This document shows, piece by piece, positions 4,256 to 10,209 of a stretch of DNA of 10,585 nt. The notes beneath the pieces are model-generated. The model was not told where the DNA came from, made no database searches, and saw only the letters and a program-made list of their open reading frames with translations. The first letter of the stretch is position 1. Each line of letters begins with the position of its first letter. The DNA is from a virus. Lineage: Duplodnaviria > Heunggongvirae > Uroviricota > Caudoviricetes. Both the position numbers and the translations under genes were made by a program. The DNA is taken from IMG/VR virus record IMGVR_UViG_2541047825_000014; one strand, 5' to 3'.

Positions 4256-4855
4256 ATGCGTAAATTATGTGCTGTTATTCTGTCCGCAGTAGTCTGGCTG
4301 GTTGCCGCTGGTACGCCAGCGAGCGCAGCAGAGCATCAGTCCACACTAAGCGCCGGGTATCTTCAGACCCATACTGATATGCCAGGCAGTGATGACCTGA
4401 AGGGCATTAACGTGAAATACCGTTATGAATTTACGGACACGCTGGGGCTGGTGACGTCATTCAGTTATGCCAATGCCAAAGATGAGCAAAAAACGCATTA
4501 CAGCGATACCCGCTGGCATGAAGATTCAGTGCGTAACCGCTGGTTCAGCGTGATGGCGGGGCCGTCTGTACGCGTGAATGAATGGTTCAGTGCTTATGCG
4601 ATGGCGGGTGTGGCTTACAGCCGTGTTTCGACGTTCTCCGGGGATTATCTCCGCGTAACTGACAACAAGGGGAAAACGCACGATGTGCTGACCGGAAGTG
4701 ATGACGGTCGCCACAGCGACACGTCTCTGGCATGGGGGGCTGGCGTGCAGTTTAACCCGACCGAATCCGTGGCCATTGATATTGCTTATGAAGGTTCCGG
4801 CAGTGGCGACTGGCGCACTGACGGTTTCATCGTTGGTGTCGGTTATAAATTCTGA
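4256..4855 (+). CDS. lom: Lom outer membrane protein (Ail/Lom/OmpX/PagC beta-barrel family); lysogenic-conversion moron
   Basis: 199-aa ORF with a signal peptide (MRKLCAVILSAVVWLVAAGTPASA) and a C-terminal GFIVGVGYKF beta-barrel terminus, recognised as lambda Lom. Ribosome-binding site GAGAGG at 4243-4248. Flanked by terminators on both sides. Confidence 0.95.
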   Translation: MRKLCAVILSAVVWLVAAGTPASAAEHQSTLSAGYLQTHTDMPGSDDLKGINVKYRYEFTDTLGLVTSFSYANAKDEQKTHYSDTRWHEDSVRNRWFSVMAGPSVRVNEWFSAYAMAGVAYSRVSTFSGDYLRVTDNKGKTHDVLTGSDDGRHSDTSLAWGAGVQFNPTESVAIDIAYEGSGSGDWRTDGFIVGVGYKF

Positions 4856-4919: not shown

Positions 4920-6983
4920 ATGGCAGCAGTAAAAATCTCAGGTGTGCTGAAAGATGGTGCGGGAAAACCAATACAGAACTGCACTATTCAACTGAAGGCA
5001 AAGCGTAACAGCACCACGGTACTGGTCAACACAGTGGCCTCTGAAAATCCGGATGAAGCCGGGCGTTACAGCATGGATGTTGAGTATGGACAGTACAGCG
5101 TCACCCTGCTGGTTGAAGGTTTTCCGCCTTCACATGCCGGGACCATTACCGTCTATGAAGGTTCCAGACCAGGTACGCTGAATGATTTTCTCGGTGCCAT
5201 GACGGAAGATGATGTCATGCCGGAGGCATTGCGTCGTTTTGAGGAAATGGTGGAAGAAGCGGCACGCAACGCTGAAGCCGCCTCTCAGAGCGCAGCGGCA
5301 GCAAAGAAATCAGAAACAGCAGCGGCATCGTCCAGGAATGCGGCGAAAACATCAGAGACGAATGCAGGTAACAGCGCGAAAGCGGCAGCTTCTTCAAAAA
5401 CAGCCGCACAAAACGCAGCAACAGCGGCAGAACGTTCAGAGACAAATGCCCGTGCGTCAGAAGAAGCCTCCGCAGACAGTGAAGAGGCTTCCCGCCGTAA
5501 TGCAGAGTCAGCCGCTGAAAATGCCGGAGTCGCCACCACAAAAGCGCGGGAGGCCGCAGCAGACGCAACAAAGGCCGGGCAGAAAAAGGATGAGGCTCTG
5601 TCGGCAGCGACACGGGCTGAAAAGGCGGCAGACCGCGCAGAAGTCGCAGCGGAAGTGACTGCAGAGCCCTATGCGAATATAGTGCCGCCGCTGCCTGATG
5701 TGTGGATACCGTTTAACGATTCACTGGATATGATTGCGGGTTTTTCTCCGGGCTATAAAAAAATAGCTATTGGTGACGATGTGGTTCAGGTCGCCAGTGA
5801 TAAACAGGTTAATTTCAGTCGCGCATCAACGGCAACATATATCAACAAATCTGGCGAACTGAAAACGGCGGAAATTAATGAGCCGCGATTTGAGTGTGAT
5901 GGCCTGCTTATTGAGGGACAAAGAACGAACTACATGCTCAATTCGGAAAGTCCAGCCAGCTGGGGGAAGTCATCAAACATGGATGTGCCCGAAACCGGGA
6001 CGGATAGTTTTGGTTTTACTTATGGAAAGTTTGTCTGCAACGATTCTCTGGTTGGGCAAACTTCGGCTATTAATATGGCATCAATTGCTGCAACAAAGTC
6101 AGTTGATGTCTCAGGCGATAACAAGTACGTGACAACCTCATGCCGTTTTAAAACAGAACGACAGGTAAGGTTACGTATACGGTTTGATAAGTATGATGGT
6201 AGTGCAACAACTTTTCTTGGCGATGCGTACATTGATACGCAAACGCTTGAAATTAATATGACAGGTGGTGCTGCCGGCAGAATTACGGCACGAGTCAGGA
6301 AGGATAAGACCACAGGCTGGATTTTTGCAGAGGCAACGATTCAGGCAATTGATGGTGAGTTAAAAATAGGCTCTCAGATACAGTATTCTCCTGAGCAGGG
6401 TGGGGCAACAGTATCTGGTGACTATATTTATCTTGCCACCCCACAAGTAGAGAATGGGCCGTGTGTATCATCATTTATTATTTCAGGAGGCAGCGCAACG
6501 ACAAGAGCCAGTGATTTGGTTAGTATCCCCACCAGAAATAATCTTTATAAGTTACCATTTACTTTTTTACTTGAGATTCATAAAAACTGGGATATTGCAC
6601 CAAACGCCGCACCCCGCGTGTGGGATATAGCAGCAGCCAATACCGGGCAATCAGCAATTGCAGCAATCAACAGAGGTAGTGGTAAGTTATATATGAGTCT
6701 GTCAAACCCTTCAGGCTCGTATGTTAATAGCGCAGCGACAGATGTATTTGCAGAGAAAACCACATTTGGATGTATTGCAAAAGCTGATGGTCACTTTCAT
6801 GTGGTGACAAATGGTAAAGCGGTTAATGAAGTTTATTGTGAATATAATGGCGTGACCGCTGATAAAAATATCCGATTTGGAGGGCAGACGAATACTGGAG
6901 AACGACATCTGTTTGGCCATATTCGCAATTTCCGCATATGGCATAAAGAATTAAATGACAGGCAATTAAAAGAGGTCGTATGA
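4920..6983 (+). CDS. stf: Side tail fiber protein (Stf-like), mosaic: conserved N-terminal tail-attachment region, Ala-rich repetitive shaft, divergent AT-rich C-terminal putative receptor-binding domain
   Basis: ORF track gives 4914-6983 with a GTG start. I prefer the ATG at 4920 (product MAAVKISGVLKDG..., matching the lambda Stf N-terminus) with GGAG at 4911-4914. No tfa-like gene follows. Confidence 0.85.
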   Translation: MAAVKISGVLKDGAGKPIQNCTIQLKAKRNSTTVLVNTVASENPDEAGRYSMDVEYGQYSVTLLVEGFPPSHAGTITVYEGSRPGTLNDFLGAMTEDDVMPEALRRFEEMVEEAARNAEAASQSAAAAKKSETAAASSRNAAKTSETNAGNSAKAAASSKTAAQNAATAAERSETNARASEEASADSEEASRRNAESAAENAGVATTKAREAAADATKAGQKKDEALSAATRAEKAADRAEVAAEVTAEPYANIVPPLPDVWIPFNDSLDMIAGFSPGYKKIAIGDDVVQVASDKQVNFSRASTATYINKSGELKTAEINEPRFECDGLLIEGQRTNYMLNSESPASWGKSSNMDVPETGTDSFGFTYGKFVCNDSLVGQTSAINMASIAATKSVDVSGDNKYVTTSCRFKTERQVRLRIRFDKYDGSATTFLGDAYIDTQTLEINMTGGAAGRITARVRKDKTTGWIFAEATIQAIDGELKIGSQIQYSPEQGGATVSGDYIYLATPQVENGPCVSSFIISGGSATTRASDLVSIPTRNNLYKLPFTFLLEIHKNWDIAPNAAPRVWDIAAANTGQSAIAAINRGSGKLYMSLSNPSGSYVNSAATDVFAEKTTFGCIAKADGHFHVVTNGKAVNEVYCEYNGVTADKNIRFGGQTNTGERHLFGHIRNFRIWHKELNDRQLKEVV
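5260..5650 (+). repeat. Low-complexity Ala/Ser/Glu-rich degenerate repeats encoding the fiber shaft of Stf
   Basis: Translation contains repeated A-A-K/S-x-S-E-T-N/A-A motifs (AAKKSETAAASSRNAAKTSETNAGNSAKAAASSKTAAQNAATAAERSETNARASEEAS...). The GC-rich GCN-codon runs generate spurious overlapping ORFs on both strands. Confidence 0.6.
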
Positions 6984-7258
6984 AAGATTTAACTTTGAAG
7001 TTTCATGACAAACTGCAGTTTAAGGCCTTCCTGTCATCTCTTGGCTGGGCGGAAGATGAAGACCTCCAGAATAAACTGTTAGTTGATGAAATTGGTTTCA
7101 CCTACACAGAAACAGGGGTAACAGAAGAGGGAGAACCTGTCTGTATCCGGAATGATGGTTATTTTGTCAACATTCGCATTCTTGATGACTTGTTTGATGT
7201 TTCTGTATTCTCTGATTATGTCGTGGAGCTGGAAACACCGCTTCGGGAATGGAGCTGA
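6980..7258 (+). CDS. Hypothetical acidic 92-aa protein, translationally coupled to stf
   Basis: The ATG at 6980 overlaps the stf stop (ATGA at 6980-6983). AGAGG at 6971-6975. No signal peptide or TM segment. No family recognised. Confidence 0.55.
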   Translation: MKDLTLKFHDKLQFKAFLSSLGWAEDEDLQNKLLVDEIGFTYTETGVTEEGEPVCIRNDGYFVNIRILDDLFDVSVFSDYVVELETPLREWS

Positions 7259-7270
7259 AAGGAGGAAATA

Positions 7271-7558
7271 ATGGATATAAGCCCCTTACTTCATGCACTT
7301 TGTGCTGTGGCTGCGCAGATACTGGTTGGTCTTTTTACCGGAAACTGGGCTTACGGAGCGATAGCCGGTTGTACGTTCTTCATTGCGCGTGAACATACCC
7401 AGGCAGAATATCGCTGGATTGAAATGTTCGGGCATGGCAAGCGAATGAATATGCCGTGGTGGGGCGGTTTTGATCCGCGTGCTTGGGATGTGGCAAGCCT
7501 GATGGATTTTGCTGTGCCGGTGGTGGCGTGTCTGCTGATCTGGATGTTGATCCGTTAA
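7271..7558 (+). CDS. Hypothetical small membrane protein (95 aa, two predicted TM helices)
   Basis: Strong ribosome-binding site GGAGGA at 7261-7266, 5 nt before the ATG. Hydrophobic N-terminal segment (LLHALCAVAAQILVGLFTG...AIAGCTFFIA) and C-terminal segment (FAVPVVACLLIWMLI), with a Trp-rich loop (NMPWWGGFDPRAWD). No family recognised. Confidence 0.6.
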   Translation: MDISPLLHALCAVAAQILVGLFTGNWAYGAIAGCTFFIAREHTQAEYRWIEMFGHGKRMNMPWWGGFDPRAWDVASLMDFAVPVVACLLIWMLIR

Positions 7559-7573
7559 ATATAAAAAGTAAAA

Positions 7574-7609
7574 AGCCGCAGTAACTTGTCATGATAGGAT
7601 ACTGCGGCT
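7574..7609 (-). terminator. Hairpin likely terminating the minus-strand dinI-like transcript (possibly bidirectional)
   Basis: AGCCGCAGTA (7574-7583) and TACTGCGGCT (7600-7609) are reverse complements with a 16-nt loop. On the minus strand the hairpin is followed by TTTTTACTTTTTAT (complement of 7561-7573). There is no T-run on the + strand. Confidence 0.45.
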
Positions 7610-7675
7610 GGCTGGTTAACTTTCGATAGTGCGAGTATTGAATGATTTCCAGCCGTTACTGATTTTACGTGCTAA

Positions 7676-7924
7676 TTAGTGAACAAACCACTCATCAGCA
7701 GACTCCCAGGTATCTTTCAGAGTTTCCTGAACAAAAGTTTTAGCTGAATCTTTATCGGCGGTGCGCGTAACAGAAAGGCCATCGTTGCTGGTGGCTTTTA
7801 CGATCACCTCTACATCGTCATAACGTTTACTGATGCGTCGGGTTAATTCTTCCTTTAACGCATCCACAGCACCGTTTGGCATTTTAGTCATTTTTTCTTT
7901 GGCTATGCAGATCTCAATACGCAT
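7676..7924 (-). CDS. DinI-family DNA-damage-inducible protein (prophage-encoded DinI-like)
   Basis: 82-aa [38 protein letters not shown]...[11 protein letters not shown] with the characteristic DinI N-terminus and acidic C-terminal TWESAD(D/E)WF motif. GAGGGA ribosome-binding site upstream. Confidence 0.9.
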
Positions 7925-7937
7925 AAAAGTCCCTCTA

Positions 7938-7989
7938 TACTGTGTTTGTATACAGTGTTATTTTTAACTGTATGGATAAACAGTGTCAA
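7938..7989 (-). promoter_or_regulatory. SOS-regulated sigma70 promoter of the dinI-like gene with two tandem LexA boxes
   Basis: Two CTGT-N8-ACAG motifs: box 1 TACTGTGTTTGTATACAGTG (7938-7957) and box 2 AACTGTATGGATAAACAGTG (7966-7985). On the minus strand a perfect -35 TTGACA (complement of 7984-7989) abuts box 2, and a -10-like TAAAAA lies 17 nt downstream (complement of 7961-7966). The -35 overlaps the integrase stop codon. Confidence 0.7.
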
Positions 7990-9083
7990 GAGGTCTTATT
8001 TCTGCTCCTTTGGAGCTCTTCAAAACGATTATGTAAAGATTTCGGATACAGTTCGGTATATACCTGCCATAGCACGTTTAATGAACGATGCCCTGTAACC
8101 TGAGCGACTTCCTCAATACTAAAACCAGCCTCAAATAAGCGACTTGCCCCTTCTCTACGCAAATCATGGTATCGCAGATCTTTAATACCTAATTTGCTTC
8201 TTACCCTCTGAAATCCTGCAGTAACAGAAGTGCTGTTATATGGAAAAATGAATTCCGATTTTTTGGGCTGTCGTTGGACGATATCCCAGGCTTCCCCAAG
8301 CAAGGCTACTTTCATGTGGTTGCCTTCCTTTTTGCGTGGATCTTTCCTGTCTCTTACGAGTATAGATTTTTGTTCCTGGTCGAGATCTTCCCATCGTAAC
8401 CGGCATACTTCTCCGATCCGCATACAGGACCACACAGAAAATTTGAGGATATCAACGAACGGAATTTTTGAGCATTTATGAGTAGATCGTTGTTGAAGGC
8501 CTTCAATGAGCATGTCCAGTTCATCAGATGCTGGTCTACGATTACGACGGTTTGATTTACCAATCAAACCAAGTTTAAGTAGATATGGGCGAGCGCTTTT
8601 CGCCGGGTTTGATGTGTAATTAATTCCGTATACAGGTTTGGCCGCATCCAGAACACTGCCAAGATAACTAACATCGTGGCTGACTGTTGCTGGACCTGCA
8701 CCAGCGTTGTTTCTTAGCCTGCAATGTTCAATTACGTCATTTTCTGTCAGTTCAGATAGTTTGATCGCGGAGATGTCACTATCCATAAGCAGTTCCAGCA
8801 CATATCTTTTAGTACGGCCTGCTTTACCTCCGGCATTTGGGTCATTTAAATATTTGTGTAGTAAGTCACGGACTGTAAGTCCGTCAACTGCATTTGATGA
8901 TGGAATGCCATATAGATCTAATTCCATCACTTTCTGTGTTCCCCATGTTTTGGCATGAGCATGTTTAGGGAATGTTTTGCTTTCCCTGTAAGTGATAACA
9001 CCTTTTTCTTTGATAATCACATTACAGCGATAGCGTGGTGTGCCATCGGATTTTAGTCGTTTCTCTATGTTATAGTACGCCAT
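7986..9083 (-). CDS. int: Phage integrase, tyrosine site-specific recombinase family
   Basis: 365-aa ORF. The C-terminal catalytic region carries R...HxxR...Y hallmarks (RYHDLRREGASRLFEAG...VTGHRSLNVLWQVYTEL). It diverges from dusA with an 88-bp intergenic spacer. Confidence 0.93.
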   Translation of the reverse strand: MAYYNIEKRLKSDGTPRYRCNVIIKEKGVITYRESKTFPKHAHAKTWGTQKVMELDLYGIPSSNAVDGLTVRDLLHKYLNDPNAGGKAGRTKRYVLELLMDSDISAIKLSELTENDVIEHCRLRNNAGAGPATVSHDVSYLGSVLDAAKPVYGINYTSNPAKSARPYLLKLGLIGKSNRRNRRPASDELDMLIEGLQQRSTHKCSKIPFVDILKFSVWSCMRIGEVCRLRWEDLDQEQKSILVRDRKDPRKKEGNHMKVALLGEAWDIVQRQPKKSEFIFPYNSTSVTAGFQRVRSKLGIKDLRYHDLRREGASRLFEAGFSIEEVAQVTGHRSLNVLWQVYTELYPKSLHNRFEELQRSRNKTS

Positions 9084-9101
9084 TACACGACCTCGTTATT
9101 T

Positions 9102-9139
9102 CGGGTTCCCATAAAACGTGGGAACCTGTGCGGGAACCT
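9102..9139. repeat. Three copies of a GGGAACC/GGGTTCCC heptamer (one inverted, two direct) in the int-dusA intergenic region; candidate integrase or regulator binding sites or att-associated repeats
   Basis: cGGGTTCCCataaaacgtGGGAACCtgtgcGGGAACCtaacg read directly from the sequence. Confidence 0.4.
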
Positions 9140-9171
9140 AACGCGAGAAAAATAGCCTGAAATGTTCAAAA

Positions 9172-10209
9172 ATGCACGATAATCATGAAACACAAAAAAT
9201 TAATCAAACCAGCGTGATGCCTGAAAAAACTGGTGTTTACTGGAATTCTCGGTTTAGCATTGCTCCTATGCTTGACTGGACGGACAGACATTGCCGTTAT
9301 TTCTTGCGTCTGCTTTCCCGCAATACGTTGTTGTATACCGAAATGGTGACCACAGGGGCGATTATTCACGGTAAAGGTGATTACCTGGCGTACAGTGAAG
9401 AAGAACATCCGGTAGCGTTGCAACTCGGGGGTAGCGATCCGGCGGCGCTGGCACAGTGTGCGAAGCTGGCAGAAGCGCGTGGATATGATGAGATCAACCT
9501 GAATGTCGGCTGCCCGTCTGACCGGGTGCAGAACGGCATGTTTGGTGCGTGTCTGATGGGTAATGCGCAGCTGGTTGCCGACTGCGTGAAAGCGATGCGC
9601 GATGTGGTGTCGATTCCGGTGACGGTGAAAACGCGTATTGGCATCGATGATCAGGACAGCTATGAATTTCTCTGCGATTTCATCAACACCGTTTCCGGCA
9701 AAGGTGAGTGTGAGATGTTCATCATCCACGCACGTAAAGCCTGGCTTTCTGGGTTAAGTCCGAAAGAAAACCGTGAGATCCCGCCTCTCGATTATCCGCG
9801 TGTGTATCAACTGAAGCGTGACTTTCCGCATCTGACGATGTCGATTAACGGTGGTATCAAGTCGCTGGAAGAAGCTAAAGCGCATTTGCAACATATGGAT
9901 GGCGTGATGGTCGGGCGCGAGGCGTATCAGAATCCGGGTATTCTGGCGGCGGTAGACCGAGAGATTTTTGGTTCCTCGGATACCGATGCCGATCCGGTGG
10001 CGGTAGTGCGCGCCATGTATCCGTACATTGAGCGTGAACTCAGCCAGGGTACGTATCTCGGCCATATTACCCGGCATATGCTGGGCTTGTTCCAGGGTAT
10101 TCCTGGCGCGCGGCAGTGGCGGCGTTATTTAAGTGAAAATGCCCATAAAGCGGGTGCAGACATTAATGTGCTGGAACACGCGCTCAAACTGGTGGCGGAT
10201 AAGCGTTAA
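9172..10209 (+). CDS. dusA: tRNA-dihydrouridine synthase A (DusA)
   Basis: 345-aa ORF with a Dus-family TIM-barrel signature ([17 protein letters not shown]...NLNVGCPS...). The exact start is uncertain: the ATG at 9172 has no clear ribosome-binding site, and an in-frame alternative lies at 9217. The first ~150 nt are notably AT-rich compared with the rest of the gene. Confidence 0.9.

Follow-up and report, generated by a model that had tools for sequence, protein, structure and literature searches.

Described LexA-Controlled dinI Genes

The closest described counterparts of the locus studied here are the dinI homologs of the Salmonella prophages Gifsy-1, -2, and -3, which have a LexA box upstream and whose tagged protein accumulates after mitomycin C treatment (PMC3121763). 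Swapping the box-containing promoter abolishes damage-dependent induction, and the essential product of the operon is a small antirepressor (Lemire et al. 2011, PMC3121763). The three genes have one box each, with heterology indices (HI) of 3.9–5.3, and nalidixic acid raises their expression 4.6- to 23-fold (PMC8072944); Table S1 of the Salmonella paper gives gene names only, without box sequences. Among chromosomal dinI genes, that of Klebsiella has a box over its start site, LexA occupancy of its promoter measured by ChIP drops after mitomycin C, and its 3' end is processed to an Hfq-dependent small RNA, DinR (PMC10907235). In Escherichia coli K-12, dinI has a single verified box, ACCTGTATAAATAACCAGTA, whose 20-mer is separated from the ATG by 19 nt.

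Searches of the literature returned no report on LexA boxes or induction of the E. coli lambdoid dinI cassette, nor any report of LexA binding or expression for the exact promoter described below. In an array of CFT073, the dinI-like gene c0943 changed along with sulA, umuD, recN, and dinI (PMC2817434), and one paper speculates that induction of Stx phages would be restrained by the DinI of the phage (PMC8456039). LexA control of a prophage dinI gene is already proven in the Salmonella Gifsy prophages; the present locus differs from these in the presence of two operators, the monocistronic organization, and the location between tail fiber genes and int.

Two LexA Boxes on a Prophage dinI Promoter

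The window analyzed here is a stretch of 10,585 bp, in which a preliminary description had drawn attention to the segment 7925–7989 as the promoter of a DinI-like gene with two well-formed CTGT-N8-ACAG boxes. A pattern search of the whole window recovered two exact palindromes of this form and no others, CTGTGTTTGTATACAG at 7940–7955 and CTGTATGGATAAACAG at 7968–7983, where 0.14 would be expected by chance; none of 200 dinucleotide shuffles of the window contained two or more. The corresponding 20-mers, given here on the plus strand, are TACTGTGTTTGTATACAGTG for the proximal box (7938–7957) and AACTGTATGGATAAACAGTG for the distal box (7966–7985), and agree with the consensus TACTGTATATATATACAGTA at 16 and 15 of 20 positions, respectively. 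The plus-strand reading of the segment includes aaaagtccctctataCTGTgtttgtatACAGtgttatttttaaCTGTatggataaACAGtgtcaagagg.

We scored both boxes with a symmetrized matrix built from 15 E. coli K-12 operators, those of recA, lexA (two), sulA, umuD, uvrA/ssb, uvrB, recN (three), dinI, dinB, uvrD, yebG, and tisB, whose 20-mers had all been confirmed as exact matches in MG1655 DNA upstream of the respective genes before the matrix was built. The proximal box scores 22.0 bits and the distal box 20.7 bits, on a scale where the 15 verified MG1655 operators range from 13.3 to 27.4 bits (leave-one-out) and the dinI, recA, yebG, and sulA operators score 22.2, 22.7, 21.1, and 19.5 bits. With the same matrix, the third-ranked site of the window reaches 8.4 bits, about 12 bits below both boxes, and 20.7 bits was attained by none of 300 Markov-shuffled windows. 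The corresponding HI-like values are 5.8 for the proximal and 6.7 for the distal box (1.7–12 for the reference operators), values that derive from our own matrix and not from the Lewis 1994 heterology matrix and are not directly comparable with published HI. The chance expectation and the matrix scores together exclude coincidence: the two-box match is real, lies where the preliminary description had placed it, and is far beyond chance, and both boxes are of operator quality, having the palindromic form CTG-N10-CAG as well as the more stringent CTGT-N8-ACAG.

The promoter itself lies on the minus strand. Its −35 hexamer, TTGACA at 7989–7984, is a perfect match, seen in the sequence and by the promoter scan, and its −10 region, TAAAAAT at 7966–7960, can be read either as TAAAAA with a 17-bp spacer or as AAAAAT with an 18-bp spacer. 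The promoter scan chose TTGACA with AAAAAT (10 of 12 matches), the 17-bp alternative being equally possible, and the −10 is weak, with four of six matches. The distal box occupies the −35/−10 spacer and overlaps the −35 by 2 bp, the final two bases of its 20-mer being the final two of the hexamer, whereas the proximal box begins 2 bp past the −10 region and lies over the predicted transcription start, which we infer would fall about 7 nt past the −10, inside this box. Core promoter elements or the predicted start are, by position, overlapped by both boxes. The earlier statements that the boxes bracket the −10, that the −35 is perfect, and that the arrangement spans 7925–7989 are accurate. A Shine-Dalgarno sequence, GAGGG at 7935–7931, read from the sequence, lies 6 nt ahead of the dinI ATG at 7924, and 13 nt separate the proximal 20-mer from this ATG.

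The 20-mers are 8 bp apart, so that both boxes could be occupied simultaneously. Their center-to-center spacing of 28 bp, or about 2.7 helical turns, sets two LexA dimers about 240 degrees apart round the helix, and because the dimers would not be on the same helical face, we assume that LexA binds them independently rather than cooperatively. The window shares with lexA, recN, and the colicin genes the presence of several LexA operators per promoter. The spacing differs: in MG1655 DNA the boxes are 21 bp apart in lexA and 22 and 18 bp apart in recN, whereas they are 28 bp apart in the window, with the −10 between them. In colicin genes the LexA boxes overlap one another. More than one LexA operator on a promoter generally goes with tighter repression.

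The Gifsy genes resemble the window gene in being prophage dinI homologs with their own sigma-70 promoter and an E. coli-type LexA box near the ATG, but they have a single box over the −10 (in Gifsy-2, TACTGTGTTTATATACAGTG), whereas the two boxes of the window flank it. The chromosomal dinI genes of E. coli, Salmonella, and Klebsiella belong to the same family and also have a box between promoter and ATG (PMC10907235). Compared with K-12 dinI, the prophage gene has two boxes of similar strength and a perfect −35, and it is mobile.

The stop codon of the adjacent integrase gene, TGA at 7988–7986, is embedded in the −35 hexamer, the 3' end of int reading AAG ACC TCT TGA. Between int and dinI the scan detected no terminator, so that read-through from int into dinI, and hence LexA-independent expression, is possible. 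The preliminary description had presented this overlap as a compact arrangement. The TGA does lie inside the −35, but the overlap is a by-product of the cassette abutting this particular integrase gene; the same promoter adjoins noncoding DNA in other phages.

The DinI-like Protein and Its Transcription Unit

The gene behind this promoter (7676..7924, minus strand) encodes a protein of 82 aa that matches the Pfam DinI family PF06183 with an E-value of 1.2e-19 and 70.8 bits, against a cut-off of 24.2, over profile positions 1–63 of 63. With DinI of E. coli K-12 it shares 46% identity, and it matches the solved DinI structures PDB 1GHH/7YWA (E = 8e-13). The earlier assignment as DinI-like is therefore well founded, and on these sequence matches the protein is a genuine member of the DinI family; its identity with the Gifsy protein is 42%. 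In the cryo-EM structure of DinI on RecA, contacts are made by L13, L21, W71, W77, and F78 in a hydrophobic pocket and by E24, E69, and D76 in an acidic patch (PMC9926225). By our own mapping, made by aligning the 82-aa protein with K-12 DinI and transferring these published residues, the same positions are M15, L23, W73, W79, F80, E26, D71, and E78. Five of the eight contacts are identical (L21, E24, W71, W77, and F78) and the other three are conservatively replaced (L13 by M, E69 by D, and D76 by E). Like DinI, the protein should bind RecA filaments.

The RNA past the dinI stop codon contains two predicted hairpins (z = −3.8). The first, GGCUGG...CCAGCC, lies in the dinI 3' UTR at 7654–7610 (minus strand). 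The second, at 7609–7562 on the same strand, is an intrinsic terminator with a 10-bp G+C-rich stem (7609–7600 with 7583–7574) followed by UUUUUACUUUUU; the terminator scan missed it because of its 16-nt loop. Among 12 variants of the 3' region, the terminator stem shows compensatory changes at four pairs, and the first hairpin is invariant in all 12, which leaves it without covariation evidence. The only same-strand ORF downstream of dinI, 70 aa long (7380..7592, minus strand), starts inside the terminator loop. It has no Pfam match, and neither RefSeq nor the mEp460 annotation has a gene on its strand there; the ORF annotated at this place in RefSeq is one of 95 aa on the opposite strand. Because a terminator follows dinI and the sole downstream ORF starts in the loop of this terminator and lacks a family match, the dinI unit appears to be monocistronic. 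In this respect it is similar to chromosomal dinI, whose mRNA is likewise short and monocistronic and is structured at its 3' end, and differs from the Gifsy operons, in which dinI is followed by an antirepressor directed against a noncleavable repressor; the repressor of the relatives of the window prophage is of the S24 type.

A search of the whole window against Rfam gave no match at gathering thresholds, the sole low-stringency match, to babR_5UTR (E = 4.6), being at chance level. The invariant hairpin and the terminator may be released together as a regulatory small RNA, as DinR is in Klebsiella; the literature search found nothing specific on a 3'-UTR small RNA of the E. coli lambdoid dinI cassette.

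Prophage Context and Mobility of the Cassette

Directly upstream of dinI and in the same orientation lies a tyrosine integrase gene of 365 aa (7986..9083, minus strand; Pfam Phage_integrase, E = 1.1e-20), an assignment that the annotations of mEp460 and of RefSeq genomes share. Beyond it lies the host gene dusA (9172..10209, plus strand), identified by its Pfam Dus domain (E = 8e-105) and by the RefSeq annotation of matching genomes, which marks the right-hand junction between prophage and chromosome. Matching chromosomes have, in this order, tail genes, lom, tail fiber, small ORFs, dinI (reverse), int (reverse), dusA, pspG, and other host genes, and the arrangement identifies the window as the right end of an mEp460-like lambdoid prophage that has inserted at the 5' end of dusA. 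The cassette thus lies between tail fiber genes and int, whereas the Gifsy cassette follows the replication genes at a distance of about 1.3 kb (PMC3121763).

The top full-length match of the window in the E. coli collection is 98.1% identical, and features of the prophage beyond the window are taken here from relatives about 98% identical over the window. The repressor of these close relatives has an HTH and a Peptidase_S24 domain (E = 5.9e-19), in mEp460 as well as in the closest complete relative. Two other LexA boxes were observed in the close relatives: a near-consensus one of 26.6 bits inside the CI-type repressor gene, present also in mEp460, and one of 23.2 bits where a methyltransferase gene close behind Q begins. 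The curators of mEp460 annotated the dinI promoter and do not mention LexA.

The 541 bp around the promoter have matches in 3,170 of the 5,426 complete E. coli genomes, with as many as seven copies in one genome, and in 134 phage records, among them mEp460, cdtI, 2H10, and many Stx1 and Stx2 phages. In most phage records the homology breaks off on one side at the −35 (about 7989) and on the other within the terminator hairpin (about 7600). Variation was followed in 80 viral-contig and four genome loci that encode a 98–100% identical protein. Upstream of the −35, these loci have at least five unrelated classes of DNA, one of which is the present integrase while the rest are noncoding, some of them ending in a terminator-like C-run/T-run. 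Past the terminator hairpin, the DNA is unrelated between copies, in many downstream contexts. Promoter, gene, and terminator together are, from these borders and contexts, a mobile phage "moron" cassette, whose gene, as in morons generally, would be dispensable for the phage. It shares with other morons (lom, bor) a promoter and a terminator of its own, sharp homology borders, and many unrelated flanking contexts; it differs from them in that it would be wired to the host SOS regulon instead of being constitutive or phage-controlled. A terminator-like element ahead of the cassette, as found in its intergenic contexts, is a further point of similarity with Gifsy.

The two boxes travel with the cassette. 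Both CTG-N10-CAG boxes are kept in 67 of the 68 copies with enough upstream sequence, the proximal box being present in all 68 and the distal CTG/CAG in 67; their spacing is 28 bp in 62 of the two-box copies and 29 bp in the other five. In 20 unique in-register promoter variants, changes are mostly confined to the center of the distal box, the gap between the −10 and the proximal box, and the region upstream of the −35, while the CTG/CAG arms are constant and AAAAT of the −10 is invariant. One divergent variant has a different proximal box core (CTGTACATAACTACAG) and different flanks with intact CTGT/ACAG arms. The Shine-Dalgarno sequence is largely conserved, a few variants having GGGGG or GGGGA. 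This pattern indicates that the LexA boxes are under selection in the cassette.

A scan of genome contigs for distant relatives yielded just the four near-identical loci, and the diversity described below was taken from tblastn of phage records. The PhiR12_5 homolog (69% protein identity) retains both boxes. That of BP-4795 (60%) retains the proximal box and has lost the distal one through a change of CAG to CAA, which suggests that two boxes are dispensable. The homolog of Klebsiella P18-100 (68%) has a single box in a different promoter, and those of Gifsy-2, Kp4884-1, PHB10, and Aeromonas pAEv1818 (42–51%) have a single box overlapping or adjoining the −10. In Gifsy-2 and Kp4884-1 a terminator precedes the cassette, and in Gifsy-2, PHB10, and Aeromonas pAEv1818 small ORFs directly follow dinI. 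The homolog of Yersinia YeP1 (47%), placed after another gene, has no box. From these comparisons, LexA control appears to be the rule for phage dinI genes, and the two-box layout is confined to the clade of E. coli lambdoid cassettes.

Host LexA and Other Candidate Readers of the Boxes

Taken together, we regard it as very probable that 7925–7989 is the regulatory region of a self-contained SOS-inducible dinI cassette under the control of host LexA; those points of the preliminary interpretation that are open to sequence analysis all hold. The sigma-70 promoter on the minus strand would direct a monocistronic mRNA for the 82-aa DinI-family protein, ending at the terminator at 7609–7562. In an undamaged cell, host LexA dimers would sit on the two independent operators, one in the spacer and one at the start site, and would block RNA polymerase from binding or from initiating. 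After DNA damage, RecA filaments would trigger LexA self-cleavage, both operators would be vacated, and the DinI-like protein would be made, independently of induction of the prophage itself. The best-supported model is thus ordinary LexA repression of a promoter with a strong −35 and a weak −10 by two operators of medium to high affinity. From what is established for SOS promoters, two operators should make the basal leak smaller than in genes with a single box, and induction may come later.

The main competitor of this model holds that a phage-encoded LexA look-alike reads the boxes, mainly or in addition to host LexA, and re-occupies those of dinI and other phage genes once host LexA is lost, resulting in a pulse of expression or in phage control. 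The gene mEp460_046 is annotated as "LexA DNA binding domain protein," and its 108-aa ortholog in NZ_CP043181.1 matches Pfam LexA_DNA_bind (2.9e-19), without an S24 domain. This protein is 43% identical to residues 1–86 of host LexA, with RSVNAAVEHLRAL in the recognition-helix region where LexA has RSPNAAEEHLKAL, and the prophage of the relatives contains two more strong LexA boxes (26.6 and 23.2 bits). A precedent is reportedly provided by gp6 of phage GIL01, a LexA homolog that is said to regulate phage promoters. However, the gene of the 108-aa protein lies outside the window, its presence in the prophage being deduced from relatives with 98% identity across the window; many different phage backgrounds have the dinI cassette, with no sign that those carry the 108-aa LexA-domain gene; and host LexA alone suffices to account for the boxes. 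We therefore consider a reading by the phage protein unlikely, and it is similarly doubtful that the dual-operator dinI promoter is a node of a phage-wide LexA-box network readable by the phage itself. Should the 108-aa protein bind the boxes, the phage could re-impose or reshape LexA control after destruction of host LexA, and DinI, thus RecA filament activity and repressor cleavage, would be timed from within.

Far less probable is a Gifsy-type switch, in which the LexA-controlled promoter would serve an antirepressor gene downstream of dinI whose product inactivates a noncleavable repressor. Gifsy-1, -2, and -3 do follow this logic, with dinI first in the operon (PMC3121763), small ORFs stand directly behind dinI in the distant homologs of Gifsy-2, PHB10, and Aeromonas pAEv1818, and the window has the 70-aa ORF at 7380..7592 (minus strand) downstream of dinI. 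But dinI ends here in a hairpin with a U-run, in whose loop this unannotated ORF without Pfam match begins, the DNA beyond the hairpin is unrelated among copies, and the repressor of the relatives is of the cleavable HTH plus Peptidase_S24 kind. The two defining features of the Gifsy model, a co-transcribed downstream gene and an uncleaved repressor, are thus both missing, the second as judged on relatives.

Finally, that the palindromes are chance A+T-rich inverted repeats or integrase/att sites is hardly credible: although they adjoin the 3' end of int, and although A+T richness and numerous repeats bound by proteins are typical of phage att regions, the same two boxes accompany dinI into contexts that have no integrase and the prophage meets the chromosome at dusA, across int from the boxes, which rules out an att or integrase role, while the chance expectation of 0.14 and the matrix scores speak against coincidence and the conserved positions are the LexA-contacted CTG/CAG arms.

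A Possible Role for Prophage DinI in the SOS Response of E. coli

The relatives encode a repressor with HTH and Peptidase_S24 domains, and RecA-dependent cleavage of this repressor is therefore the likely route of prophage induction. Because this repressor is of the cleavable type, the idea, already present in the preliminary description, that the DinI-like protein tunes RecA-dependent repressor cleavage and with it prophage induction is plausible. The RecA-contact residues of the protein are conserved, and filament stabilization and competition for the groove are the candidate directions of such an effect.

The regulatory logic is that of the textbook, with a proven analog in Salmonella, and the arrangement is widespread and essentially ordinary. 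Since the cassette is found in 3,170 of 5,426 genomes and in many Shiga-toxin phages, many E. coli strains probably make extra prophage DinI from the onset of the SOS response. Of practical interest, this additional DinI could alter SOS mutagenesis and possibly also the threshold at which CI-type prophages, toxin-converting ones among them, are induced.

Sequences Flanking the dinI-Like Gene

The dinI-like gene is followed by a strongly structured 3' untranslated region of about 110 nt (7562-7675, minus strand), in which an invariant hairpin (7654-7610) precedes the terminator hairpin. Processing of the 3' end of the chromosomal dinI of Klebsiella yields the Hfq-dependent small RNA DinR (PMC10907235); no Rfam family matched the phage 3' untranslated region (window 7562-7675). 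The opposite strand carries, in the RefSeq annotation, a pseudogene fragment of a "capsid protein" (7599-7679; 27 codons) that could account for some of the conservation of this region. Upstream of the dinI promoter, phage BP-4795 and related loci carry three to four copies of a short tandem repeat, TGATGCCCCAT, located 160 nt upstream of dinI in BP-4795.

Two small plus-strand ORFs of 92 aa (6980-7258) and 95 aa (7271-7558) follow the tail fibre gene; both products are hypothetical proteins in RefSeq relatives, and neither matched a Pfam family. The length of the tail fibre region varies among otherwise close prophages, with 2,070 bp in the window versus 2,379 bp and an additional fibre gene in NZ_AP017610.1.

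Integration Site

The prophage is inserted at the 5' end of dusA (window 7986-10209; positions 1-5000 of L109, the locus of the closest complete relative, NZ_CP043181.1), and int and dusA are divergently oriented. The attachment site therefore lies upstream of int, whereas that of lambda lies downstream. Because the left prophage end adjoins zur (L109 1-5000), just some 2.7 kb separates the prophage bearing the predicted LexA-controlled dinI cassette from the chromosomal lexA-dinF operon. The proximity to lexA is probably coincidental, following from the position of dusA.

LexA-Related Elements in Prophage Relatives

Outside the window, a near-consensus predicted LexA box, TACTGTTTTTACATACAGTA, was found within the gene of a CI-type repressor (HTH and Peptidase_S24 domains), with the same sequence in NZ_CP043181.1 (L109 12303-12322) and in phage mEp460 (positions 4671-4690 of its locus, L108). 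At 26.6 bits, it outscores both dinI boxes. It covers codons 70-77, which encode the linker joining the HTH and Peptidase_S24 domains, and no obvious promoter hexamers were found around it. A third strong predicted LexA box of the prophage, TACTGTAAAAATAAACAGTG (L109 20844-20863, also outside the window; 23.2 bits), overlaps the start of a gene for a DNA methyltransferase, spanning its codons 3-9. The methyltransferase gene follows the gene for the Q antiterminator, at the beginning of the late operon.

The relatives also encode, again outside the window, a 108-aa protein (L109 16758-17084, plus strand; mEp460_046 is its equivalent) made up solely of a LexA DNA-binding domain (Pfam PF01726, 2.9e-19) and devoid of the S24 cleavage domain. 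It shares 43% identity with residues 1-86 of the host LexA, and the recognition helices of the two proteins resemble each other. A LexA homolog encoded by a phage, gp6 of GIL01, has been reported. The 108-aa protein is a candidate non-cleavable mimic of LexA.
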